DNA of 63,250 nucleotides, filler included, from an uncultured virus (IMG/VR IMGVR_UViG_2049941000_000294) (lineage: Duplodnaviria; Heunggongvirae; Uroviricota; Caudoviricetes). It is 10 parts of one record of this genome, joined end to end, with 100 filler letters (N's around TTAATTAATTAA, not from the genome) between each part and the next. Parts side by side here need not be neighbours in the genome. Positions count along the whole stretch, not along the records: positions 14,363 to 37,542 come from IMGVR_UViG_2049941000_000294; 9 more parts are not named here. One strand, 5' to 3'. Below, one piece after another: positions 6,670 through 45,942 of the stretch. The position numbers and the translations under genes are program-made. Below the pieces are notes generated by a model, which worked only from the letters and a program-made list of their open reading frames with translations, had not been told where the DNA came from and ran no database searches. The number at the start of each line of letters is the position of its first letter. Position 1 is the stretch's first letter.

Positions 6670-7854
6670 ATGAAACGCTACAGCATATTCCAGAAGCACA
6701 AGGCGAAGGGCAACATGACCTGGTACGGCCGTATTTCGGAAAGCGGCCTGTTCCACGTCGTTTCGCTCGGCACAAAGAAGAAGGCCGATGCCGTCGCATG
6801 GCTCGACCTGATGAACGCGCAGAAGTTTCTCCCGGAAGGGATGGCCAAGGAAAAGCCCGACGCGAACCTTGTGGAACTCTCTCGCAAGTTCATCGACTCT
6901 TGCGAGACAGCCAACAGCGCAAGCGACGCAACGCTTCGCGCTTACCAGTTGCGCATCTCGTATTTTCTGGAATGGGCCGCGCAAAACGGCAAGAGCCTCG
7001 TTTCGCAGGTCAGCGACAAGGACGCCGTCGATTTTTCCACGCTCATTGCAACACGATACGCCCCGAAGACAGCCGGNNNNNNNNNNNNNNNNNNNNNNNN
7101 NNNNNNNNNNNNNNNNNNNNNNNNNNNNNNNNNNNNNNNNNNNNNNNNNNNNNNNNNNNNNNNNNNNNNNNNNNNNNNNNNNNNNNNNNNNNNNNNNNNN
7201 NNNNNNNNNNNNNNNNNNNNNNNNNNNNNNNNNNNNNNNNNNNNNNNNNNNNNNNNNNNNNNNNNNNNNNNNNNNNNNNNNNNNNNNNNNNNNNNNNNNN
7301 NNNNNNNNNNNNNNNNNNNNNNNNNNNNNNNNNNNNNNNNNNNNNNNNNNNNNNNNNNNNNNNNNNNNNNNNNNNNNNNNNNNNNNNNNNNNNNNNNNNN
7401 NNNNNNNNNNNNNNNNNNNNNNNNNNNNNNNNNNNNNNNNNNNNNNNNNNNNNNNNNNNNNNNNNNNNNNNNNNNNNNNNNNNNNNNNNNNNNNNNNNNN
7501 NNNNNNNNNNNNNNNNNNNNNNNNCGAATACGTGCGCAAGCCCAAGCTGAAGCAGAGCGCGAAAGGCTTCTGGACCCAGGACGAAATCAACGCGATCCTC
7601 GCGGCCGCACCGAGCACGGAATACCGCAAGTTCTGGGCGCTCATGGCGTTTGCAGGGCTTCGCTATTTTGAGGCCCGCGACCTACGCTGGAAGGACATCG
7701 CAGACGGCAAGATTACGCTTGTCGGCAAGGGCGGGAAACTCGCTACCGTGCCCGTATCGAAACGCCTGCAAAACGAAATGGGCACGCCAGGAAACCCGGA
7801 CGCCACTATCGTCGCCGCAGGCACGTTCGCCAACAACACAAGCAGCATCCGAGC
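6670..7854 (+). CDS. int: Tyrosine integrase (two fragments across a gap)
   Basis: ALMAFAGLRYFEA and GKGGK motifs; homologous to 44941-45939. Confidence 0.88.
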
Positions 7855-11775: not shown

Positions 11776-12104
11776 ACCAGTAAAGAACGGCACTGCGGCA
11801 CCGACAGTCTTGTACAGCACGTAGCACTTATTTCCACGCACGCTCGCCACGACACCGAGTGCGGTAAATCCCGCCGCAGACATCTTGGCGTCGTCAACGG
11901 TATCTCCGGAAACGAACGTCACCGAGCCTTCGGCAACACCGCTGCCAGGAGTGGCCGTGCTGTACACGCTCGTTGTCGGAACATACACCGCGTCGCCCTG
12001 CTTGGGACGCGAAACAACAACGTTCACGCCGTCGAAGTGCACCTTGCCGGAGTCGGCCTCGAGCGAAACCGTGCTCTTGCCGAGAGCCGCACGGGCAGAA
12101 GCGT
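11776..12104 (-). CDS. DGR target protein, internal N-proximal fragment (third allele)
   Basis: GVNVVVSRPKQGDAVYVPTTSVYS...CYVLYK nearly identical to 18920-19129 and 21225-21470. Confidence 0.85.
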
Positions 12105-14216: not shown

Positions 14217-14362
14217 GGGCTACCTCTTTTTACGAGGCTTGCGCCGTGCTGGTGGAGGTGGCNNNNNNNNNNNNNNNNNNNNNNNNNNNNNNNNNNNNNN
14301 NNNNNNTTAATTAATTAANNNNNNNNNNNNNNNNNNNNNNNNNNNNNNNNNNNNNNNNNNNN

Positions 14363-14662: not shown

Positions 14663-15078
14663 TTGCTAGAGACCTATTTCGTTGCGCGTAGCAACAAGCG
14701 CCGCTCGAGAGACGCGGTATTGTTCGAGATGTGCTTTGAAAAGTCTCTCGTCCGTCTATGCAATGACCTGAACGGGCGCAGGCTCGATACTACCCCGAAC
14801 TATGCCTTCGTCGTTTTTAGTCCCAAGGCGAGAGAAATTTTCGCCACGGCGATGTACGTGCGCATCGTGCATCACTACCTGGACCGCAAGTTGCGCCCGA
14901 TATACGAGGACGTGCTTTCGGACCGTACCTACAACAACCGCAAGGGAAAAGGCTTGCACGCCTGCATTGCGAACTTCCGAGAGGATGTGCGCGAGATGAC
15001 CTGCAACTACACTCGCGATGCCTGGATTGTCCACATGGACCTCAAGGGCTATTTTCCGAACGCGTACGTAGAGATTGC
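14663..15078 (+). CDS. DGR reverse transcriptase, N-terminal fragment (allele 3)
   Basis: Nearly identical to the N-terminal half of 16481-17662. Confidence 0.9.
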
Positions 15079-15532: not shown

Positions 15533-16345
15533 TCAGACCCTCACCTTATACTTTCGCTGGAGCACGGCACGAAAATCGTAGCGAGCACGCAGCGCAAAGC
15601 AGTTTTTCTTGTTATTCCATTGCAAATACCGCCTGAACGATGTCAGTACCTCACGCCTAAACCGTTCAGTGACATTCCGCATATCTTTTGTCCTTAAAAT
15701 CCCGACGTAGGTATTCATCGACGAAAGCAATTGCGCAGTTTTCCACTGCACGTTCCGAGTATGATTCCATTCATTTATTTTTGCAAATGCCCGGTGTACA
15801 GTTCCGTTGTCGGCATACTCGCGTTTGAACTTCACCCGGCTACCGAGTATATGTATGCCCTTCGAATAGTGCTGGCAGTAGAACTTCCGTTCATTCAGTT
15901 GCACCTTCAGAGCCAAAAGCCTTGAGCGAATCTCCGGCATCATCGAGAGGAATTTCGCCTTGTCGGTAGTCACGATGTAAATGTCGTCAACGAAGACAAC
16001 GACACGCAAGAAACCAAAAGTCTCCAGCCACTTCACAACATTGTTGATGTAGTGACCCATGGCATTTTGCCAGCAAAGAAAGCCTATAGCACCGCCAGTT
16101 CCCACCGGCTTATTGAATAAGCTCTTTTCCGGAGTAATAGCGGACCAGTTCGAGCGCGGCACATACACCTTGCAGTTTCTCGCAGGGTCAGCCCGCATGC
16201 AGGATTCCATCATGTATCTAACGTCAGCCTCGTCATCTCCGATGTAGTAGCGGTCGATGAGGTCCATCTGCTGCGCAAGCGCAATCTCAACATCGGCGTT
16301 CGGGAAATAGCCCTTGAGGTCCATGTGGACTATCCAGGCGTCACG
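15533..16345 (-). CDS. DGR reverse transcriptase, C-terminal fragment (allele 2)
   Basis: MDLKGYF, GGAIGFLCWQ and FVDD motifs; close to 16481-17662. Confidence 0.92.
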   Translation of the reverse strand, partial: RDAWIVHMDLKGYFPNADVEIALAQQMDLIDRYYIGDDEADVRYMMESCMRADPARNCKVYVPRSNWSAITPEKSLFNKPVGTGGAIGFLCWQNAMGHYINNVVKWLETFGFLRVVVFVDDIYIVTTDKAKFLSMMPEIRSRLLALKVQLNERKFYCQHYSKGIHILGSRVKFKREYADNGTVHRAFAKINEWNHTRNVQWKTAQLLSSMNTYVGILRTKDMRNVTERFRREVLTSFRRYLQWNNKKNCFALRARYDFRAVLQRKYKVRV

Positions 16346-16480
16346 NNNNNNNNNNTCGCTTGTCCAAACTGCACAACGACGCTCCTACCGTACACATGCA
16401 GTCAACAAGCGCCTTGAGCGTCTTTTCAGTAAGACGCTTTAACTTTTCGCCCAAAATCGCCTTCAAGTCATAACTAGCCA

Positions 16481-17662
16481 TCACAGCCTCACCTTGTACT
16501 TGCGCCGAAGCACCGCACGAAAACCGTAGCGGGCACGCAGCGCAAAGCAGTTCTTCTTGTCATTCCATTGCAAATACCGCCTGAACGATGTCAGCACTTC
16601 ATGCCTGAATCGCTCGGCGACATTCCGCATATTCTTTGTTCTGAAAATTCCGATGTAGGTATTCATCGACGAAAGCAGACGAGCGGTTTTCCAATGGATG
16701 CTCCGTTCGTTCCTCCATTCCTCGATCTTCGCAAACGCTCGACGCACCGCGCCGTTGTCGGCATACTCGCGGTCGAATTTTATGCGACTGCCGAGCATGT
16801 GCACGCCTTTCGAATAGTGCTGGCAGTAGAATTTCTTTTCGTTCAGCCGTACCTTCAAAGCGGAAAGCCTTGCGCGTATCTGCGGCATCATCGAGAGGAA
16901 TTTCGCCTTGTCGGTAGTCACGATATAGATATCGTCGACGAATACAACGACACGTAAAAAACCAAACGTCTGCAGCCACTTCACGACATTGTTGATATAG
17001 TGACCCATCGCGTTTTGCCAGCAAAGAAATCCTATCGCACCTCCCGTGCCTACCGGCTTGTTGAACAGACTCTTTTCCGGAGCAATCGCGTACCAGTTTG
17101 AACGCGGAACATATACGCTGCAATGCCGTGCAGGGTCGGCACGCATACACGAGGCCATCATGTACTTCAGATCATCCTCGTCGTCGCCGACATAGTAACG
17201 TTCAATCAGGTCAAGTTGCTGCGCAAGCGCAATCTCTACGTCCGCGTTCGGGAAATAGCCCTTGAGGTCCATGTGGACTATCCAGGCGTCACGCGTGTAG
17301 TTGCAGGTCATCTCGCGCACGTCCTCGCGGAAGCGAGCGATACAGGCATGAAGGCCCTTGCCCTTGCGGTTGTTGTAGGTACGGTCCGAAAGCACGTCCT
17401 CGTATATCGGGCGCAGCTTGCGGTCCATGTAGTGATGCACGATGCGCACGTACATCGCCGTGGCGAAAATCTCCCTCGCCTTGGGGCTAAAAACGACGAA
17501 GGCATAGTTCGGGGTAGTATCGAGCATACGCCCGTTCAGGTCATTGCGCAGACGAACGAGAGACTTTTCAAAGTTCATCTCGAACAGCACCGCATCTCGC
17601 GAGCGACGTTTGTTGCTTCGGGCAACAAAATAAGTCTCTAGCATTTCATCTAGCAATACCAT
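16481..17662 (-). CDS. DGR reverse transcriptase, full length (393 aa)
   Basis: KAREIF, RKGKGLH, DLKGYF, IGFLCWQ, FVDD and LG motifs plus a basic C-terminus; adjacent to avd and TR. Confidence 0.95.
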   Translation of the reverse strand: MVLLDEMLETYFVARSNKRRSRDAVLFEMNFEKSLVRLRNDLNGRMLDTTPNYAFVVFSPKAREIFATAMYVRIVHHYMDRKLRPIYEDVLSDRTYNNRKGKGLHACIARFREDVREMTCNYTRDAWIVHMDLKGYFPNADVEIALAQQLDLIERYYVGDDEDDLKYMMASCMRADPARHCSVYVPRSNWYAIAPEKSLFNKPVGTGGAIGFLCWQNAMGHYINNVVKWLQTFGFLRVVVFVDDIYIVTTDKAKFLSMMPQIRARLSALKVRLNEKKFYCQHYSKGVHMLGSRIKFDREYADNGAVRRAFAKIEEWRNERSIHWKTARLLSSMNTYIGIFRTKNMRNVAERFRHEVLTSFRRYLQWNDKKNCFALRARYGFRAVLRRKYKVRL

Positions 17663-17790
17663 ACTATCCACCGAACGGCCTGCATTAGTCAAGTNNNNNN
17701 NNNNNNNNNNNNNNNNNNNNNNNNNNNNNNNNNNNNNNNNNNNNNNNNNNNNNNNNNNNNNNNNNNNNNNNNNNNNNNNNNNNNNNNNNN

Positions 17791-18163
17791 NTGCCGTCGT
17801 TGACCGTACTTCGCGGGCGATCCTTTCTCGCCACGCGACTATGCCATCGTCAATTCTTTGTATGTATTCGTATGATTCTACGCACTTTTTTCCAGGCAGC
17901 ACCTTCTTGTCGATACACAGCCGCATCAGACCTTTCAGCACTTCAAAATGCGCGAGGAATCTGTCCGTGTGAACCACCTTCTCGTTTCCGCGCAACTTGT
18001 AAGAAAGAGTGAACTCGACAAGCATCGCAGTCGCCGCGTCAAGGAGCCTGTCGCCGAGAACGGCCCTGTCTCGTTTTGGAATCGAAAACCGCAGACCGTA
18101 CACGATACCAACCAGCTTGTAGGTATCCACGTATATCGGAGTATCGACAACTTTCTTTGACAC
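17791..18163 (-). CDS. avd: Avd (accessory variability determinant), second allele, 3' end in gap
   Basis: Highly similar to 18324-18782; different upstream sequence. Confidence 0.85.
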
Positions 18164-18198
18164 TCCCGCAGAAAATTGCCGAAAAGCANNNNNNNNNN

Positions 18199-18303
18199 TC
18201 GCAACCGACAACGCCCGATTGTTGTTGTTCAGGTTGTTGTTGCCGTTGAAATTCCCGTTGTTGTTCAAATTCCAGCCATTGGAGCGGGAACGGACAAAGG
18301 GAA
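18199..18303 (-). ncRNA. DGR template repeat (TR)
   Basis: Reads PFVRSRSNGWNLNNNGNFNGNNNLNNNNRALSVA; all 28 adenines in 18203-18303 lie in 14 AAY codons; within the aligned spans it differs from both VRs only at adenines. Confidence 0.97.
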
Positions 18304-18323
18304 CCGCCGCAGCCGAAGCTGCA

Positions 18324-18782
18324 TCAAGGCGCACTGCCGGAACTGGTATTCATGATACCGTCGCCTCCTCTTAACTGCTCTTGCACGCCGGAATGGCGGC
18401 CATTGTTTGACGCCGCCGTTGACCGTACTTCGCGGACAATCCTTTCTCGCCACGCGATTATGCCATCGTCAATTCTCTGTATGTATTCGTAAGACTCCAC
18501 GCACTTTCTTCCCGGAAGAACCTTCTTGTCGACGCAGAGACGCATCAGACCTTTCAACACTTCGAAATGCGCGAGGAATCTGTCAGTGTGGACTACCTTC
18601 TCGTTTCCGCGCAACTTGTATGACAGCGTAAACTCAACGAGCATTGCCGTCACGGCATCAAGAAGCCTGTCGCCGAGCACGGCCCTATCGCGCTTCGGTA
18701 TCGCAAAGCGCAGGTTATACACGATACCCACGAGCTTGTAGGTATCTATGTATATCGGTGTATCGACGACTTTCTTTGACAC
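18324..18782 (-). CDS. avd: Avd four-helix-bundle accessory protein
   Basis: PIYIDTYKL...IPKRDRAVLGDRL...IAW pattern; positioned between VR and TR. Confidence 0.88.
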   Translation of the reverse strand: MSKKVVDTPIYIDTYKLVGIVYNLRFAIPKRDRAVLGDRLLDAVTAMLVEFTLSYKLRGNEKVVHTDRFLAHFEVLKGLMRLCVDKKVLPGRKCVESYEYIQRIDDGIIAWRERIVREVRSTAASNNGRHSGVQEQLRGGDGIMNTSSGSAP

Positions 18783-18804
18783 GCGGAGATCCTTTTGGTG
18801 TGCA

Positions 18805-18827
18805 GGCGCGGCTTTGAAGGCCGCGCC
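18805..18827 (-). promoter_or_regulatory. GC-rich hairpin downstream of VR2 (DGR target-recognition stem-loop candidate)
   Basis: GGCGCGGC-TTTGAAG-GCCGCGCC, perfect 8-bp stem, 15 nt after the target stop; no U-tract. Confidence 0.75.
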
Positions 18828-18842
18828 GAAGAAGGTGGAAGG

Positions 18843-19129
18843 CTAAATATCCAAGAGCGCGACCGACAACGCCCGAAGGTTGGCGTACAGGGCGCCGCTG
18901 CCGTTGAAANNNNNNNNNNACCCGGAGTGGCCGCACTGTACACGCTCGTGGTCGGAACATACACCGCGTCGCCCTGCTTGGGACGCGAAACAACGACGTT
19001 CACTCCGTCGAAGTGCACCTTGCCGGAGTCGGCCTCGAGCGAAACTGTGCTCTTGCCGAGAGCCGCACGGGCAGAAGCGTCCGCCGAATAGTCGGCGGCA
19101 TCGTCGTACTTGTTTATATAGCTTGCCAT
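18843..19129 (-). CDS. DGR target protein B (N-terminus 18920-19129; C-terminal VR2 and stop 18843-18909; middle missing)
   Basis: C-terminus FNGSGALYANLRALSVALLDI*; 10 mismatches to TR in 48 bp, all at adenines. Joining the two parts across the gap is an inference. Confidence 0.85.
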
Positions 19130-19141
19130 GGTCTAAATCTC

Positions 19142-19312
19142 CTATGCGTTCGGGACGGTTATCGTCACGTTGTTCAATTTCAGTCGGTGGTTCGTCGCGT
19201 CGTAGGCAGCGTCGATTATATCCTGCTTCTCAACGACCTTCTCCAACACCTTCGTAGTCAGCCTTTCAAGCTGCGAGCCTTTGATGGCCTTGTCATCGTA
19301 TGTATTCGGCAT
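19142..19312 (-). CDS. Small hypothetical protein (56 aa)
   Basis: MPNTYDDKAIK...VPNA*, with a GGAGG RBS, between two operon genes. Confidence 0.65.
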   Translation of the reverse strand: MPNTYDDKAIKGSQLERLTTKVLEKVVEKQDIIDAAYDATNHRLKLNNVTITVPNA

Positions 19313-19324
19313 TTAAGTCACCTC

Positions 19325-20392
19325 CTACGCGTTGGCGGCATTCCAGGCCGCGGTGAAAAGTGCATCTACTTCGGCGTCCGTCATAAACGACAGGGCGGCC
19401 TGCTTTGAATTCCAGTTGTCGATGTCCGACTGCGAGATGTTGTCAAGCAGGGCCTTGTTAGTGTGCGAGTGTCTTGCCGACGTGTTCTCGTCCACGTTGC
19501 CCTTGTACGCATCCGTGAAGTCGTTAGTCGAGAGACCCCTGCCTTCGACTTTGTCCACCTTGCCGTCAAGTTTCGCCGCGACGTCCTCGCCGCCAACAAG
19601 CAACTCCTGCACGTCCAGGCGGTCGGCGGTGCGGTCGCCAAGGTTAGTTTCGGATACAGCCTCCTCGTTGGCGCGGACTCGCGCGTCGAGATCGTTCAAC
19701 GCTGCGGCCACCACCTCGCCCATGCCGGTATTGCCCGGGTCTATGGCGTCGATTGCAGCCTTCACGCCGCCCGACGTGACAGCCTTCTGCGAGCCTTCCG
19801 TCGGCGTCGTGTCCATCGTCTCTTCGGTCGCAACAATCTTGCCGTCCGCCTCGCGCACGGCCTTGATGTACTTGCCTGTACCGCCGACTTCGGCAACATC
19901 CAGCGCNNNNNNNNNNTGGCGTCGATGGCGACCTTCACGCCGCCCGACGTGATAGCCTTCTGCGAGCCTTCCGTCGGTGTCGTATCCATCGTCTCTTCGG
20001 TCGCAACAATCTTGCCGTCCGCCTCGCTTACGGCCTTGATGTACTTGCCTGTACCGCCGACTTCGGCAACATCCAGCGCATTGATTGCATCGCGCACCGC
20101 CTTCGGGGTCGCAGCCTTAGAATCGTCGCTCTCGCTTGCAGCGATACTGCCCTTGAGCTGCACGACACCTGTCTGCGACGTGGTGCCGGAGCGGATAGTC
20201 TTCTTCGTCGCGGTAATNNNNNNNNNNGTATTCTGCGTGAGGGAATCTATGGCCTCGATGGTCGTACCGCTCGCGGTCGGGTCACTCTTGCTCGCCTGCT
20301 TAATCTTGTAGTTGCCTTCGGAGCTCTGCCAAATCTTCACGCTCTGGTCGTCGGACACGTAGAAGATGACTTCCTGCCCGTCTACAACGGGG
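19325..20392 (-). CDS. Fibre-like structural protein fragments with a duplicated ~145-bp segment
   Basis: KVDKVEGRGLSTNDFT, GVVQL..AATPKAV and PTEGSQKAVTSGGV fibre motifs; 19762-19906 is close to 19934-20078. Confidence 0.65.
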
Positions 20393-20402
20393 NNNNNNNN
20401 NN

Positions 20403-20503
20403 AACCGACAACGCCCGACCGTTGGTGTACAGGGGGTAGCTGCCGTAGAAAGCCCCGGTGGCGTACAAATTCCAGCCAAGGGAGCGGGAACGGACAAAGG
20501 GAA
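20403..20503 (-). repeat. Variable region VR1
   Basis: Ungapped 101-bp match to 18203-18303 with 17 mismatches, all at TR adenines. Confidence 0.97.
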
Positions 20504-21539
20504 GCCAGTAGCGCGAATTGATCGAGTTCGTGTTAAGCTGTAGCGCGCCGCCTCCGATTTTCGACAGCGTCTTGTTAAATATGTCTGCGGCAGGGTTCTC
20601 GAGCGTGTACTTGACGTGCCTGAAGATGTCCTGTACGATGCCGAGCCCAGGCTGGAACCAGTCACCACGACGAAGTCCGTCCACATTCGCAAACTGACCG
20701 TATGAACCCCATGTCAGGTTATGGTTGTAGGCAAATTGCGCAACTCGGAAGAAGGCCGAATTGTCGGCCTCATTCGCATCGACAAGTACCTTCGTCGCCG
20801 CCTTGCCATCCTGGAAGACGACGGAATTGCTCGCCAGCGAGCTCGGATACGCCAACCGACGAGATTCAAGATACTTTCGGAAGCCCGCCTCGCCTGCACC
20901 AAACTTGGCGATAGTTTCGGCCACCTTGTACGTCGCAGTGTCATGAGCCGTAATGTCGGATGCCGCAGGACCGAGTGTCAGGCCCCAGTCGGCCCCGTTA
21001 AGAAAGTCGTTTCGCAACCCGTTAGTACCGCCGTTCCAGCCCTCGTTCTCTCTCTCGCCGCCTCGGCCCGTCAGCCACGCAAACAGCACGTCTATTTGGC
21101 AGGTTGCGCGGAAGCCGACAAGACCCTGCGTATCCTCGGCGTCTCCAGCCTTGATTTTATTAATGTCTGCATCGGAAAGCTTGTCGGACGGAATGGTATA
21201 TGCAGAAGATGTCGCGCCGGTAAAGAAAGGACCGGCAGCACCAACGTTCTTATACAGCACGTAGCACTTGTTGCCGCTCACGCTCGCCACGACGCCGAGC
21301 GCGGTGAAGCCCGCCGCCGTCATCTTGGCGTTGTCAACGGTATCGCCAGCGACGAACGTCACAGAGCCTTCCGTAACGCCGCTGCCAGGAGTTGCCGAGC
21401 TATACACGCTCGTGGTCGGCACGTACACCGCGTCGCCCTGATTGGGGCGCGAAACAACGACGTTCACGCCCTTGTAAATGCCGGAGCGGTACACGCCGTG
21501 ACCGCCCTTATATATCGAACTTATTTTGTACATACCCAT
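20403..21539 (-). CDS. DGR target protein A with C-terminal variable region, probably C-type-lectin-like
   Basis: GDWFQPG...YWLPF...GWNLY...RALSV C-terminus; VR1 at 20403-20503. Confidence 0.92.
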
Positions 21540-22041
21540 GAGTCATCCTCCTCGTTACGGAGTCACGTTCCGCCTCGATTTCGAGCTCGAGCATCGGGAC
21601 GACAGTTTCGCCGGAGTACGCAGAGTCGATATTGAAGTCGTCACACGTGAACGTGGTGCCGTTCTTGATGACCGCAAGTTCGCAGTCCTTGCCAACAGCG
21701 GAATCTGCGACGCCGATGCGTAAATCCTGATCAACCCACTCGTCCCACTTTACGAACGAAAGCTCGAATGAGCCCGAAGCATCCTCGCCTCCGGTCACGA
21801 ATTTCAGCTTCACGTTGCCCGCGATTTTTTCCTTTCCGGGAGCGAGGCCAATAGCGCCCGAAGCCAAAAGCCTCGCACGGACGATGCGAAACTCACCGCC
21901 CTTGAACTGCACCTCGTCCGCAAGCGCAAAAGAAAGCGAGTGACACTCCAGCGCTGCATCTGCTTCGACACCGAACGAAGCCTGTCTTGAGTTACCTGTG
22001 AAGGTGTAGCTCGAATCAAGAACTGCATATACACTATACAT
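21508..22041 (-). CDS. Hypothetical tail-region protein
   Basis: 177-aa ORF between the receptor-binding protein and target A. Confidence 0.7.
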   Translation of the reverse strand: MYSVYAVLDSSYTFTGNSRQASFGVEADAALECHSLSFALADEVQFKGGEFRIVRARLLASGAIGLAPGKEKIAGNVKLKFVTGGEDASGSFELSFVKWDEWVDQDLRIGVADSAVGKDCELAVIKNGTTFTCDDFNIDSAYSGETVVPMLELEIEAERDSVTRRMTHGYVQNKFDI

Positions 22042-22056
22042 AGTTTACCTCTTTTT

Positions 22057-24813
22057 TTAAAGCCTCATTAAAAATTCTTCGACAAACGTCGATTCAAATT
22101 CCATAGCATGAGCGTTCGGGTGCGTGTTGTCGGCACTTACGCGGAACTGTTGCAAACGCAGGTCGTGAGCCGCCTGTGCAACATTCGGCTTGCCGTTCAC
22201 ACGATGCAACAGCGGGACGTTGTAGTCGAAGTTTTCATCCAGCACGGCGACGCCCCATTTTTCGGCGCAATCCTTCGCCGCCTGCGGGTAGTCCGTATTG
22301 TCGCAACCGTTGGACACGATTACGCCTATCTTTGCGAACGGGTAATTGGTTATAAGATACTCAAGGACAACGTTCCACGCACCGTACTCTGTTTCTGTCG
22401 TGTTGTCGCTGATTGTGCCAAGAGGGATGTTCTTGTGTCCCGGACCGTCATTGATGCCGAACTTCAACGTGATGTAGTCAACGTCCTGCGGAATCTGGTA
22501 CAGGCGTCCCGTAGATGGATACGTGAAGCTGTCCTGCGCCGTTGACGTTCCCGCCTTGTAGCCGATCGTGGAACCGGACACCGCGAAGTTTACGACCGTC
22601 ATGTCGTTACGAAGACCGACATAGAGAGGATAGGACTTGTTCTGCCCTTGGTACTTTCCGTCAGGGAACGGGTCCGAAACACCCTCGGTGAAACTGTCAC
22701 CGCAAGCGTACCATTTCTTTCCCTTGAGGATGGAATTTCCCGAACCGCCCGAAGCGGCCTCCTTCAATTCCTCGTGGGTGACGTAACGTTCAGTATAGAG
22801 CGTATTCGCGAACGTGGCGATGTTCGCGATGTTTTCCGAACTCGCGGTAGTCCCCGAAATCGAGACAAATCCGAGCCGGACAAACTTCGTAGTCGGATTG
22901 GCGGTCAAGATTGAAGCAATAGTGACAACGTTTCCGGTCTGCTGAATCAGCGGGTTGTCGATGTACGAACCGTCCGCTGCGTAGCAATAGTAGTTCGCAT
23001 TTGATGCGGTCACTCCGCTCTTCATCGTTATCGTGAACGTGCTGCCTGCCTGTAACTCAAGAAGCTTTGTCGAAATTCGACCGTCGGCAGAATATGGCAA
23101 CCCGTCGTGAGTACCGATGCCGTAGTTTTCCCACATGTCCGGGTCGTTAAGGTCATACGAGCGTGTCATCTTGGCGTCTATGGCGCCTATCCTTGCTGAA
23201 AGCGGAGCCACGCACTGCGCCACGGCCGTATCTACATACGTCTTCGTCGCGTAATCGGAGCTAACCTTGATTGGCTGGTTGAACGTGATTATGTTGGACA
23301 AGTTCGCAGCAGAACATTCGACGCCGGAAACGTTGATTATGGCAAGATAGAACTTCTTTGCGGTAGGGTTGTTTTGGACAAACGTTGCCAACGTTGAAAC
23401 GTTCTGAAGTCCTGCGATGAAAGTACCGTTTTCCGTGTACGCGTAGAAATACACGGTATTTCCAAGGAACGACGCACTGGCTCCCTTCGTGAAAGAGAAA
23501 ACCGACGTCGGGTCGATTTCAAGCATGTCGTTAGTCGCGAGACGTTTCCCGTTGGAGCCTGAATCGTATCTATTGCCATAGTTACCGTCGATAGTCCACG
23601 TGCCCCAGAGACTGGAGTCGTTGAGGTCTAGATAAGCGGTAGGCGTATCACCTCCTCCGCCGCCGCCACCTCCACCGCCGCCGGAAGCCGCAATGGCCGC
23701 ATCGACGTATTCCTTCGTCGCATACGGATTCTCGTACAAAGTCGCAGCAAAAGAAAGTATGTTAGTCACGTTCGACGCAGACGCCGTTCCGCTGCTCAGT
23801 CTGACTTCAATCTTTATCTTGTCTGTAAGAGGATACTGGGTCTTGATTACGGACACGGCACCGCCGGTTATATTTGTCGCGTTCACGTAGCCAAGATAAG
23901 TCCCGTCCATCTTGTAGCACATCGCATTCCACGTCTGCAACGAATAGCCGGATTTCATCGTGAACGAAATGACAGAATCGTCCGTAAGATACAGATCGAC
24001 GCTGTGCATCCTGGACGAGTTAGACTCGCTATTGCCAGTCGTTGTGTTCAGCCCCCCGTCACGCCACTTGGCAGACGAATTCAAATCGACAACAACTTTC
24101 AAATCTCCCGTCTCGATGTCTTCGATGGCCTCCTGCAAAGAATCGCAGAGGTTATCGACGTACTCTTTTGACGCTACGTTATACACGTACACATCCGCAT
24201 TGAATGTCACGATGTCGTCAAGGTTGGACGGTATAACAGCCACAGAACCTGTCGGAATCATCGACAACTTAAATAGTTTAGCTTCGGGATGGCTCTGAAT
24301 CCACGTCGGGAAATTCTCCACCGAAATTAGTCCGGAAATAAAGGTTCCGTCATCTTCGTAAGCGTAAACATATATCGAAAGCGACGTAATATTCGCACCT
24401 TTCGTGTAATCGAATATCGTATTGGGCGCAAGCGCCAAGCTATCCGGGGTGCTCAACCTAGAATCGCTAGCCGAAACGCTACCGTTAGTCGAGTCGATTT
24501 GCGAATTAGTCCATAGGCTCGAATCGTTCAAGTCTATCGTCGATACTAATACACCTAAATCGCTTGCTTTGGCAAGCAAGTTCGCAGGGACCTTCTTTTT
24601 GCCGGTTGCAGTTTGCAGCTCGAAGCTCGCATCAGTGGTCAGATCGGAGTCCGTTGCGGTATTCGTTAATGCGGAGGTATTGGCGGGAATGGTGCGCGGG
24701 CCGTCAGTTTCGTTACTGACAACGGTTACATCATCAACGCCGGGAGCTTCAGTCGATTCAAGATCGGCGACAAAATCTTTATAATTGACATATTCAACTT
24801 CAGTAGCAGACAT
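22057..24813 (-). CDS. Receptor-binding/tailspike protein with four repeated modules and a C-terminal SGNH/GDSL hydrolase
   Basis: GDSFT, AVSGS, FGIND and DNTHPN blocks; N-terminal anchor shared with 41413-43635. Confidence 0.85.
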   Translation of the reverse strand: MSATEVEYVNYKDFVADLESTEAPGVDDVTVVSNETDGPRTIPANTSALTNTATDSDLTTDASFELQTATGKKKVPANLLAKASDLGVLVSTIDLNDSSLWTNSQIDSTNGSVSASDSRLSTPDSLALAPNTIFDYTKGANITSLSIYVYAYEDDGTFISGLISVENFPTWIQSHPEAKLFKLSMIPTGSVAVIPSNLDDIVTFNADVYVYNVASKEYVDNLCDSLQEAIEDIETGDLKVVVDLNSSAKWRDGGLNTTTGNSESNSSRMHSVDLYLTDDSVISFTMKSGYSLQTWNAMCYKMDGTYLGYVNATNITGGAVSVIKTQYPLTDKIKIEVRLSSGTASASNVTNILSFAATLYENPYATKEYVDAAIAASGGGGGGGGGGGDTPTAYLDLNDSSLWGTWTIDGNYGNRYDSGSNGKRLATNDMLEIDPTSVFSFTKGASASFLGNTVYFYAYTENGTFIAGLQNVSTLATFVQNNPTAKKFYLAIINVSGVECSAANLSNIITFNQPIKVSSDYATKTYVDTAVAQCVAPLSARIGAIDAKMTRSYDLNDPDMWENYGIGTHDGLPYSADGRISTKLLELQAGSTFTITMKSGVTASNANYYCYAADGSYIDNPLIQQTGNVVTIASILTANPTTKFVRLGFVSISGTTASSENIANIATFANTLYTERYVTHEELKEAASGGSGNSILKGKKWYACGDSFTEGVSDPFPDGKYQGQNKSYPLYVGLRNDMTVVNFAVSGSTIGYKAGTSTAQDSFTYPSTGRLYQIPQDVDYITLKFGINDGPGHKNIPLGTISDNTTETEYGAWNVVLEYLITNYPFAKIGVIVSNGCDNTDYPQAAKDCAEKWGVAVLDENFDYNVPLLHRVNGKPNVAQAAHDLRLQQFRVSADNTHPNAHAMEFESTFVEEFLMRL

Positions 24814-41412: not shown

Positions 41413-43635
41413 ATGGCTACTGAAATTGAATATGTCAACTACAAAGATTTTGTTGCTGGGCTTGAAACGACGGAGAATCCCGGCGTCGATGATGTAACCG
41501 TTGTCAGTAACGAAACTGACGGTCCGCGTGTTGCTCCTGCCAATACGTCTGCTCTTTCGAATGCCGCGACTGTAAGCGACGTTGCTGCTGGCAATGCTGT
41601 AGAACTGCAAACAAGTGAGGGGAAGAAAAAACTCGATGCTGGAACGCTGTTGCAGGTGACCGCGCAGAACGCACTTGGGAGTATAAAGAACCTATCCACC
41701 ACCATCAACTCGTTCCGCACGGGTGACGTGATACCCGTGGACGGACCGAGCGGCACCGCAAAGATGATCGTGAGCACGCTATTGAAAATAGCGCGTGCCT
41801 CCGTAACGAACACAAACCTCACGGGGGCAATTAGTTTTGCTTCGAACGATACGAATGCAGTAAGAAGTTCGTCTTTTGATTATCCGTGTTTGAGCCTTTC
41901 AATCACTAAAAGCAGTGCAAATTACTATGCGGGTATAATATGCAAGTCAAACCTAAAGATGATCGTAGCAACTGCAAATACAATAATTGCCATTGTGCAT
42001 AATAAACAAAATACACCAGTAACCTTTAATCTTTGTTTTTCGCAGTATGATTATAGTTGGTCGTCCCAGACTCTTGTCACTAAAGTGACACTAAATGCTG
42101 GTGAATTTAAATATGTGCCTTTCGAAGTGAATAGTACATTGAGAGGATGGTCTAACGATAATGTTTCTTTTGTCTGTCGTCTTGATAATGATTGCTCCAT
42201 ATCTTATGATTTGGACTTGTCGCTTTTCTCGGATGTGGATTATAATGGAGTTGCCCCCAAGGCATATTATTCCGAACGAAGTAAAAAGGCCGACGTTATT
42301 GAAACTCTAAAAAGAGTACCACCGGTATATTCATCATTACTCAATGGAGGTTCTTACGTTAGAGGTGAAATTTATGGCGAGTTGACTCCGTCCTCAACTA
42401 CTTTGTATTACTTATCTTTCAATATCAAGACTTACGTTGCCGAAAGTAAAAAACTCGCATTCGCAATAAAAGTACCGGACGGAGACACGGCCAAGTACTT
42501 GAATAAACTGGTTGTTACAAATAGTGCGGGTGACTGGACCTCGCCTGTAAAAACTTTCGCTGATGGAATGAGTAAACTCAAGACAACATCTTTGAAAGTT
42601 TTCGAACTTGACCTTTCCGACATTGCTTATGATGAGAACAATCAGTATTACCTAATGGTTGGAGGGCAATGGGTGTCAGGTACGGCTAGACCAATTTATT
42701 TCACATTCTTCGATGAATCGTATCTTACTGACATCGTGTCAAGTGCGAACCTAATAACCGATGTAAGCGCACCTCTTACAAGCGATTATATAACTTGTTG
42801 GGGAGACTCGCTAACGGCTCTAGGAGGATGGACTGGGGTTTTGCAGACGAAGAGTGGTATTCCGTTGTACAACTGCGGTGTTGGTGGCGAAAATTCGAAG
42901 GATATTATTGCTCGTCAAGGTGGTGATATTATGATGCTTTTCACGAGCGATAACCCGAACATCGTAATTCCCGCGACTACTGATGCTGTAGAAATCAGAA
43001 CGAACAATATAAAAACACTTTTTGGAAATTATGCCCATCCGCTTGCTCAGCCTGGTGGCTACGTGAACCCCGTCACACTTAACGGCATCAAGGGAACTCT
43101 GTCGCTATCGTCTAGCAAATATTACTTTACCCGCAGTGAAGCGGGTGAAGCCAAGACCATTGATAGGGATGCAAGGATTGTGACCTATGGCGATGTAAAG
43201 TATAACTCTCCATATCTTATGATAATCTTTATTGGCCAAAATGGCGGGTGGAGCGATGCTGCTGAACTCATCGACCAGCACAATAAGATGATAGCCCATT
43301 CCAGTGCGAAGCACGTACTTGTTCTAGGGTTGTCGAGTGGTACTACTGAAAGCAGGGCAGATTATGAAGCTGCGATGAAGGCTGAATTTGGGCGGTACTT
43401 TGTGAGCATCCGTCAGTATCTTGCACATCCTATCTATGACGAGAACAATCAAATTGTGTCTTGTTACGGACTTGCGGACGAAGGACTTACTCCGAGTGCG
43501 AACGATTTAGAAAAAATAGCAATCGGTCAAGTCCCGAGCCAATTGCTTGCAGACGGAGTTCACTATACGGACGCGACAAAGACGGTTATCGGAAACATGC
43601 TCTACAAGTATTGTCAAGACCTCGGTATTTTCTAA
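41413..43635 (+). CDS. Receptor-binding/tailspike protein with C-terminal SGNH hydrolase
   Basis: WGDSLT, GVGGE, IGQN and DGVH blocks; shared N-terminal anchor. Confidence 0.85.
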   Translation: MATEIEYVNYKDFVAGLETTENPGVDDVTVVSNETDGPRVAPANTSALSNAATVSDVAAGNAVELQTSEGKKKLDAGTLLQVTAQNALGSIKNLSTTINSFRTGDVIPVDGPSGTAKMIVSTLLKIARASVTNTNLTGAISFASNDTNAVRSSSFDYPCLSLSITKSSANYYAGIICKSNLKMIVATANTIIAIVHNKQNTPVTFNLCFSQYDYSWSSQTLVTKVTLNAGEFKYVPFEVNSTLRGWSNDNVSFVCRLDNDCSISYDLDLSLFSDVDYNGVAPKAYYSERSKKADVIETLKRVPPVYSSLLNGGSYVRGEIYGELTPSSTTLYYLSFNIKTYVAESKKLAFAIKVPDGDTAKYLNKLVVTNSAGDWTSPVKTFADGMSKLKTTSLKVFELDLSDIAYDENNQYYLMVGGQWVSGTARPIYFTFFDESYLTDIVSSANLITDVSAPLTSDYITCWGDSLTALGGWTGVLQTKSGIPLYNCGVGGENSKDIIARQGGDIMMLFTSDNPNIVIPATTDAVEIRTNNIKTLFGNYAHPLAQPGGYVNPVTLNGIKGTLSLSSSKYYFTRSEAGEAKTIDRDARIVTYGDVKYNSPYLMIIFIGQNGGWSDAAELIDQHNKMIAHSSAKHVLVLGLSSGTTESRADYEAAMKAEFGRYFVSIRQYLAHPIYDENNQIVSCYGLADEGLTPSANDLEKIAIGQVPSQLLADGVHYTDATKTVIGNMLYKYCQDLGIF

Positions 43636-44940: not shown

Positions 44941-45939
44941 CTATTTGTAAACTTCGCTTATTGCCTTTTCGGAATCGGTGTCGAGGATGTGACCGTATGT
45001 GTCGATTGTCATCGTGATGTTTTCGTGACGCATCAAGTCCCTGACTACCATAAGATTTATACCCTTATTCGCTCGTAGGATGTTCGATCCAAAAGAGTGC
45101 CTGAAGCGATGTGCATGAGCTTTTCCTGGGAATCCTTCCGGAATGGCTTTTTGGGCAGACTTCCTCAGCTTGTACTTCGAAAATTTAAAATTCCACTCGC
45201 CGTCATAACGGTCGATTTCTCTCTTCAATCTTGGACACACTGGGATTGTTGCCGGCTTGTCGCCTTTACCGACAACGTGTATTTTCCCATCGTAGATTTT
45301 TTCTGGCCGCATTGCGACGGCTTCGCTAACGCGTAAACCGGCAAACGCCATGAGAGACCACAAGAGACGTGTCTTTGGATCGGGTGCGTTCGCGATTATC
45401 CTGTCGATTTGGTCTATCGTCCAAAAGTCTCGGTGAGTTTTAGTTACTTTTCTTTTGGGAATCGCTTTTTTTATTGGATTTTTGGGAAGCAGTTCGAGTA
45501 CATCGACGACGAAATTGAAAAAGGTCGCAAGAATGGTTTTCTTGTGCATATATGTTCGCGAGGAATTTTGTTCGGTATTTTTCAGAAACGCCTCATTTAT
45601 TTCTTTTGTCGTTATTGAAGAAACGGGCCTGTCGAAAAGTGGCCTGATTGAATCTACACCATTGACTATTACATACACGCTTGCAGGCTTTACGCCCTTG
45701 GATCTTTCGTACTGTTCGAATTTGATAACGGCTTCTCCTAGAGTCATTGTTTCGGCTTTGTCTTTGATGTCAAAGTCGCCGGCTTTCAGCCGTTCTTGCA
45801 TGCGAAACTTGGCTTCGGTTTTGCTTGACGTGCCGAGGCTAAAATAATGGGTTTTCCCTTTTGCGTGCGGGTCGGGAACTCGTGCGTACCAAGTTTGTAT
45901 GTTTTTTGATTTGTTCTTTTGGACTAGCGTTACGGCCAT
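44941..45939 (-). CDS. int: Tyrosine integrase
   Basis: GLRVSE, GKGDK, HRFRH and RHENITMTIDTY catalytic set. Confidence 0.96.
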   Translation of the reverse strand: MAVTLVQKNKSKNIQTWYARVPDPHAKGKTHYFSLGTSSKTEAKFRMQERLKAGDFDIKDKAETMTLGEAVIKFEQYERSKGVKPASVYVIVNGVDSIRPLFDRPVSSITTKEINEAFLKNTEQNSSRTYMHKKTILATFFNFVVDVLELLPKNPIKKAIPKRKVTKTHRDFWTIDQIDRIIANAPDPKTRLLWSLMAFAGLRVSEAVAMRPEKIYDGKIHVVGKGDKPATIPVCPRLKREIDRYDGEWNFKFSKYKLRKSAQKAIPEGFPGKAHAHRFRHSFGSNILRANKGINLMVVRDLMRHENITMTIDTYGHILDTDSEKAISEVYK

Positions 45940-45942
45940 GTG

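Follow-up and report, generated by a model that had tools for sequence, protein, structure and literature searches.

The question raised by this locus is whether two variable repeats lying near a single template repeat in a phage genome are two targets of one retroelement, or two versions of the same target. The window (the whole 63,250-nt stretch analysed, filler included, made of ten joined parts of one record of the uncultured Caudoviricetes virus IMG/VR IMGVR_UViG_2049941000_000294) holds a diversity-generating retroelement (DGR) with a template repeat (TR), two variable repeats (VR1 and VR2), a reverse transcriptase (RT) gene and the accessory gene avd. We hold it roughly 85% probable that this is a single-target DGR carried by a family of tailed rumen phages that are probably temperate and most likely infect Fibrobacter, and that the window merges several strains of that family. 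An original prediction had described an active or recently active, BPP-1-type DGR serving two VRs from one cassette in a Mu-tailed temperate phage.

The DGR itself is genuine. The TR (18199..18303, minus strand) is probably collapsed across strains, and its 28 adenines form 14 in-frame AAY codons, which allow 15^14 = 2.9e16 variants. Positions 18203-18303 align without gaps to VR1 (20403-20503, minus strand) with 17 mismatches in 101 positions, every one at a TR adenine (17 of 28), and VR2 (18862-18909) differs from TR 18204-18251 at 10 of 48 positions, again exclusively at adenines (10 of 16). The probability that all mismatches would land on adenine by chance is 2.7e-12 for VR1 and 1.2e-6 for VR2, and the adenine-only pattern (17/17 and 10/10) on which the element had been identified is thus borne out. 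VR1 and VR2 differ from one another at 7 of their 48 shared positions. Beyond a gap the window TR runs on into 17694, and the TR of relatives is 111 bp long with 31 adenines. The TR of the window is that of five relatives bar one base, with two further relatives each one more base off, and nine VRs that go with the same TR as the window are changed at 126 of 240 adenine sites versus 2 of 592 other sites. The resulting 52% is in line with the approximately 50% published for BPP-1 (statements about published systems here and below come from portions of the DGR literature, including PMC11080232, PMC3521204, PMC11054128, PMC7826257, PMC5758913, PMC11661182, PMC5737381 and PMC6182149). A VR anchor was found in 32 of the 120 homologues listed; 25 of these were in register and all 25 VRs were distinct, a distinctness that is partly by design since the homologue database was clustered at 90%. 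Across the 25, 279 of 350 Asn positions were changed, 349 of 350 residues were reachable from AAY (the NNY set), and other positions were changed in 6 of 500 cases. The final AA of the TR reads CT in the VR at all 23 loci compared (21 by script and 2 by eye after mis-anchoring), and we take this difference to be that between IMH* and IMH (initiation of mutagenic homing) rather than a variable site.

Contigs from four runs were aligned to positions 16356-22100 of the window; three of these runs share one sample, which is possibly the source, and are therefore not independent, and the runs that contain window DNA are mostly bovine gut metagenomes. Of runs X5-X20, which have less than half of the sequence words in common, X5 was included. 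Read along the minus strand, the cassette begins with the N-terminus of a target gene of the common 402-aa type (18920..19129), the body of which is lost in a gap; this segment is 96% identical and colinear to a relative (L015) in which the target is single. It is followed by VR2 (18862..18909), which is the 3' half of one strain's variable repeat, by the IMH (18847..18861), which forms the last codons of the target and carries the fixed AA-to-CT difference, by a post-VR DNA hairpin (18805..18827; GC stem of 8 bp, loop of 7 nt), and by avd (18324..18782, 152 aa, GTG start). A covarying RNA element (18326..18367; 8-bp outer helix and 5-bp inner hairpin with a pentaloop) overlaps the 3' end of avd and lies directly 5' of the TR. 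Past the TR come its 3' end with IMH* and a spacer of about 30 nt to the RT start (17663..17694), and then the intact RT gene (16481..17662, 393 aa, RVT_1 E 2.4e-12). The stretch from 18199 to 18909 is a single segment without a gap, as had been reported, and in two runs contigs connect 18199 with 17694, placing the TR directly before the RT leader and skipping a second avd copy, colinear with a gap-free relative (L001) that reads target (402 aa)-VR-hairpin-avd-TR-RT. The cassette order proposed earlier is thereby supported. The general retrohoming model and the role of hairpins behind the VR are in part general knowledge of the field. A post-VR stem of 6-9 bp occurs in 16 of 16 relatives (counted with no shuffle control), and single-sequence folding of this region in the window was no better than shuffles (z only -1.26).

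The window is a scaffold mosaic of several related phage strains. It consists of 69 segments between runs of N, and by self-BLAST a second, diverged copy covers 22,012 of its 57,261 non-N bases (approximately 38%), mostly at 80-97% identity and in places inverted. The duplicated genes include the RT, with a second allele encoding the C-terminal 270 aa (15533..16345, minus strand, 83% nucleotide identity) and an N-terminal fragment on an inverted scaffold piece (14663..15078, plus strand, 90%); avd, with a second copy 86% identical to the first that is an allele of another strain (17792..18187, minus strand); and the 5' part of the target (85-96% identity), of which a third fragment, a strain variant, lies at 11776..12104 (minus strand). 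Tail genes, too, are present in more than one copy. VR1 (20403..20503) is the variable repeat of a second strain and ends a target gene of at least 379 aa (20403..21539, minus strand) that has an alternative short N-terminus and a split, predicted C-type-lectin fold; sample contigs extend VR1 into an IMH of its own, and 20403 is a loose end in three runs. A contig at depth 25 that links 18876 to 20466 is a third VR allele, and at least three strains, with the TR common to them, are merged in the window. At position 18861, just past VR2, the flank departs from the window TR at a base other than adenine, VR1 agreeing there with the TR, and therefore the seemingly contiguous VR2-avd-TR piece may switch strain inside the shared TR.

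The tail genes detected by Pfam in the window are Mu-like, comprising GpP/gp44, a gp47-type baseplate J protein, gp48 and the sheath, as the original prediction held, and the same Mu-like tail genes lie upstream of the DGR in a further locus (L046). The phage family is probably temperate. Tyrosine integrases occur in both near-complete relatives and in three of four records. The host is most likely Fibrobacter. The three closest RTs in named genomes, obtained in an alignment-based scan where a single-sequence RT scan gave none, are from Fibrobacter metagenome-assembled genomes (MAGs) at 54-59% identity, with more distant ones mostly from Bacteroidales; one Fibrobacter MAG locus shares tail genes at 44-69%, and a target fragment 87% identical is labelled Fibrobacter. 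In a tree of 31 RTs (a subset without near-duplicates, with two RTs of proteobacterial phages as the root), the 11 RTs of Fibrobacter type make up one clade within Bacteroidales-type RTs, and holding the 15 Bacteroidales-type RTs together was rejected by the approximately unbiased test (p-AU 0.0036; the group was named after an earlier tree had been seen), which suggests, without proving it, that the DGR cassette was transferred across phyla from Bacteroidales phages. Fibrobacter is a main degrader of cellulose in the rumen, and how its phages diversify their receptors counted as unexplored in 2021: the supplement of Roux et al. 2021 (PMC8144416) lists the genus as DGR-encoding and still unexplored.

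The strain mosaic raises the possibility that the TR/VR pattern is itself an artefact of assembly or ordinary strain divergence, to which we give a negligible chance in view of the adenine specificity (p 2.7e-12) and the recurrence of the pattern in gap-free contigs of other assemblies; those contigs, together with the counts over nine VRs given above, rule it out. A more serious alternative is that one phage carries one cassette with two targets, an adjacent one ending in VR2 and a remote one ending in VR1 behind a GDSL-domain tail gene, much as in the Bacuni phages (PMC8143477), in which two targets are known and whose RTs are 33-35% identical to that of the window. In favor of this arrangement, and against a single target, the gene that ends in VR1 differs in its N-terminus and its upstream genes, as a remote second target would, and the same N-terminus recurs in a separate sequence (P0050). 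We nevertheless regard it as very unlikely. The RT, avd and tail genes are doubled in the same manner as the target, and contigs of the second avd copy rejoin the same hairpin at 18801 at a depth similar to that of VR1 (about 53, versus 35-42 for the first copy). In the three runs of one sample, median target-body depth divided by RT depth gives 0.79-1.08, in line with the expectation of one target per RT. Relatives also have one target only. RT scans yielded 8 viral and 37 metagenomic loci, 7 of which repeat a contig of the other collection; a TR/VR pair was present in 32 of the 45, each with a single VR upstream of the TR in the retrieved DNA, and several of the 13 loci lacking the pair are cut by contig ends. 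A repeat pair on the minus strand of L029 was discounted as a tail-gene repeat. The L001 record (51.8 kb, 95% complete) contains a single VR and a single TR, and five of five records screened with a target profile have one target plus a TR; the virus record nearest to the window (G001, 52% complete) lacks a TR/VR pattern and is uninformative about the cassette. VR1 and VR2 are, on this evidence, two strains' versions of one target locus, and the earlier claim of two VRs in one cassette is not supported. In gap-rich metagenomic scaffolds, 'multiple VRs' can be strain alleles.

Whether the element still works is a separate matter, and it is possible that it was formerly active and is now frozen in the strains of the window, so that the VR differences are old. 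The strains are 80-96% identical and their differences could be of some age; the VR of L006 has a frameshift; and the near-identical loci L026 and L027 have no VR difference at all, so that activity is not universal. We consider this unlikely, given that the RT open reading frame (ORF) and its catalytic residues are intact, that the TR is conserved while the VRs differ, and that low-depth (2-3x) contigs with indels relative to the TR in one run are possibly rare VR variants. Moreover, L028 and L006, relatives with an RT 56% identical to that of the window, differ at 21 of 8,182 bases, all of them in the 113-bp VR and including one insertion and one non-adenine change, and this points to very recent rewriting of the VR. 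In L009 and L010, with RTs 95-96% identical to that of the window, the VR holds 15 of 34 differences. Along with the changed adenine sites and Asn positions described above, these comparisons indicate that the DGR family has recently been active, which supports the predicted recent activity at the level of the family. To the L026/L027 pair and the divergent VR1 gene may be added several other points that weigh against the overall account. The sample runs were available as contigs rather than raw reads, and no contig in them spans the target to the RT; the depth classes of the strains are close (about 35-48 versus 49-54 in the deeper runs); the tyrosine integrase of the window (44944-45942) is on an unlinked segment; and the binning of MAGs is no proof of host. 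As to the insertions, the 1-nt one in the L006 VR (7199-7312) shifts the frame of the target end, whereas the otherwise identical L028 is in frame, and the VR of L024 has a 3-nt insertion.

Under the single-target interpretation, the tail module of each phage ends in target(VR-IMH)-hairpin-avd-TR-RT. If the cassette is expressed and its chemistry resembles that of BPP-1, RT and Avd would copy the TR RNA with approximately 50% misincorporation at adenines, and the cDNA would replace the VR. The 14 codons rewritten in this way would be those for the C-terminal tip of the target, a protein with a C-type-lectin fold that is probably the binder of a host receptor.

The target was modelled with a pLDDT (predicted local distance difference test) score of 89.9, and the best structural match of the model is BACOVA_04982 (4EPS; Z 13.9, root-mean-square deviation 3.6, 200 residues aligned, 14% identity), followed by the C-terminal domain of Legionella Lcl (Z 8.8) and many C-type lectins; viral models that resemble it include DUF1566 and tail-fibre proteins. 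A Foldseek search against the PDB gave nothing at E<=0.001, with 4EPS on top at E 0.04, and Pfam, PHROGs and NCBIfam hold no family for the protein. The VR is read in frame as the last part of the target gene, which encodes this predicted C-type-lectin fold and lies at the end of the tail module. The fold, the position after the tail genes and the 'phage structural' label in Roux et al. suggest that the target is probably a receptor-binding protein, and it may be the virion adhesin foreseen in the original prediction. The avd product matches PHROG 3206 ('Avd protein of DGR', E 9.9e-12), and its matches to Pfam bAvd and NCBIfam DivGenRetAVD fall below the curated cut-offs.

Over 358 aa the VR1 target shares 88% identity with that of L015. 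Its short N-terminus (21477-21539, minus strand) differs from that of the common 402-aa form and occurs also in P0050, which suggests that one lectin body may be fitted with a swappable virion anchor. The genes before it differ as well: they are a 177-aa ORF and a gene at 22057-24813 (minus strand) for a protein of 918 aa that resembles a tail fibre (PHROG tail fibre) and has a GDSL/SGNH domain at its C-terminus (Pfam E 1.7e-8). At 41413-43629 (plus strand), an N-terminus related to that of the 918-aa protein is combined with another C-terminal domain.

The sole PDB match of the window RT is bRT (8UB7, E 2.5e-9). Residues R63, D132, I210, Q216, D243 and D244 are invariant in 18 of 18 RTs, and the catalytic motif is FVDD. 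In the alignment to bRT, R63 corresponds to R74 and D132 to D138, and by motif position I210 and Q216 would be the equivalents of I181 and Q187. Motif 4 reads IGFLCWQ and does not match the canonical (I/V/L)GxxxSQ. That motif is characteristic rather than defining, with 15 of 155 DiGReF elements deviating from it, and WQ is not among the variants given in the portion of that source consulted. WQ occurs in 36 of the 40 RTs collected, a count biased by the use of WQ-containing patterns in the searches. Identity to the RTs of described DGR phages is 33-35%. The TR is in the RT frame with no stop between in the closest relatives (window 16481-17694 and 18199-18334, minus strand), and gene callers may extend the RT over the TR; a conserved in-frame fusion of TR and RT was rejected, as the shared frame, though present in those relatives, holds for no more than 7 of the 18 loci.

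A mechanistic lead comes from the RNA around the TR. In BPP-1, where cis-priming is known, a 140-nt spacer (Sp) downstream of the TR is needed in vitro for Avd binding and priming, yet the present lineage appears to be active with 13-37 nt between IMH* and the RT start at 24 of 24 loci measured, and with about 30 nt in the window. What the lineage does have is a defined 42-nt element upstream of the TR. The nested helix at 18326-18367 is paired in 169 of 169 cells across 13 sequences, with two-sided changes in 6 of 13 pairs; 0 of 500 shuffles scored as high and slid controls were 34-45% paired, the structure having been drawn from the same 13 sequences. The inner hairpin recurs in 28 of 29 loci, among them Bacteroidales loci and the cultured phage Bacuni F1, as against 6% in shuffles, with compensatory changes in 4 of its 5 pairs, and G-U pairs in the element favor a sense-strand RNA. 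Two degenerate hairpin patterns gave 18 matches in 2.9 million viral contigs, several of which were already in the locus set; behind each of the 18 comes a TR whose VR mismatches it at adenines, and an RT follows in 17, the other being cut by the contig end. The outer helix was not significant in a permissive search locus by locus (mean 8.2 versus 6.7 bp; 27 of 28 exceeded the shuffle mean), and single-sequence folding of the element was no better than shuffles (z 0.93). A covariance model built on 13 Fibrobacter-type sequences found, among 31 sources, 8 held-out close loci strongly and only 6 distant ones, weakly. At the gathering threshold Rfam matched nothing in the window, nothing in 6 loci and, in 12 further loci, a single tRNA only; matches at relaxed thresholds were at chance level.

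Downstream of the TR, a comparison of 13 loci, a weak test, gave no consensus fold for a stem-loop or avd:Sp duplex, with duplex energies mostly near or weaker than those of shuffles. RT codons 1-25 likewise had no excess of synonymous conservation (0.54 versus 0.46-0.58), a weak test for an Sp inside the RT gene. Four more distant DGR phages have no pentaloop hairpin upstream of the TR, yet in them the TR abuts or overlaps the RT gene; therefore the short spacer is more widespread than the hairpin and not special to the window element. According to a cryo-EM preprint (bioRxiv 2023.10.23.563531), 207 of 278 DGRs have BPP-1-like elements; Bacteroidota are not named in the part of it consulted. 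Literature searches found no published description of the upstream hairpin, a matter on which Table S3 of that preprint may bear. Our proposal, a tentative one held at clearly below even odds, is that in the Fibrobacter/Bacteroidales phage lineage, Bacuni included, the upstream pentaloop hairpin is a putative RT/Avd-binding structure, that Sp is absent and that a different priming site or primer is used. That priming in the window lineage differs from priming in BPP-1 is accordingly a possibility of the same modest order. Otherwise, a BPP-1-like Sp may overlap the RT gene and the hairpin may be an accessory stop or stability element.

How closely the element follows known systems can now be judged. 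The label 'BPP-1-type' holds for the mutagenesis signature and the gene order, and fails for the RT motif and the spacer. Like BPP-1 (mtd-avd-TR-brt; PDB 8UB7), the window element has adenine-only changes at approximately 50% of sites, IMH and IMH*, a post-VR GC hairpin, an equivalent of R74 and, by motif position, of I181 and Q187, and a target with a predicted C-type-lectin fold. Unlike BPP-1, it has IGFLCWQ in place of IGxxxSQ, about 30 nt in place of the 140-nt Sp, and local structure upstream of the TR with no conserved downstream stem-loop or avd:Sp duplex detected in the weak tests above; Mtd reaches only Z 4.4 to the target model. The closest RTs from cultured phages are those of the Bacteroides phages Bacuni F1, F2 and F4 (33-35%; PMC8143477), which share a target resembling BACOVA_04982, a TR that stops 33 nt short of the RT start and, upstream of it, the same pentaloop hairpin, but differ in having an RT with IGNLFSQ, two targets, a siphovirus morphology and a human-gut Bacteroides host. 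The structural match to 4EPS also recalls domain group 1 of the Bacteroides DGR variable proteins (bioRxiv 2024.11.15.621889), a group that is 70% prophage-encoded, although identity is 14% over 200 residues and the probable host of the window phages is in Fibrobacterota. Among five contig names looked up in 13 of the 15 supplementary files of Roux et al. 2021, four were found, and the L010 contig (RT 95% identical) is an RT-OTU (operational taxonomic unit) representative from rumen, labelled phage-structural, with target cluster PC_00023. Unlike the present description it is a catalogue entry, and the portions of that work consulted mention neither the WQ motif nor the RNA layout. The window DGR is therefore an ordinary, already catalogued kind of system.

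Artefacts of the strain mosaic possibly affect other observations made from the window too. Islands of 12 bases, A/T only, stand between runs of 44 N and are repeated and scattered (832-843, 1952-1963 and 14307-14318); they are likely artefacts of scaffolding or masking. Outside the family, Pseudomonas phage LPPA56 apparently carries an unannotated two-target DGR (L067, 963-1777): avd is preceded by two repeats that resemble VRs, a distinct Asn-rich TR stands immediately ahead of the RT, and the annotation calls all of them hypothetical.

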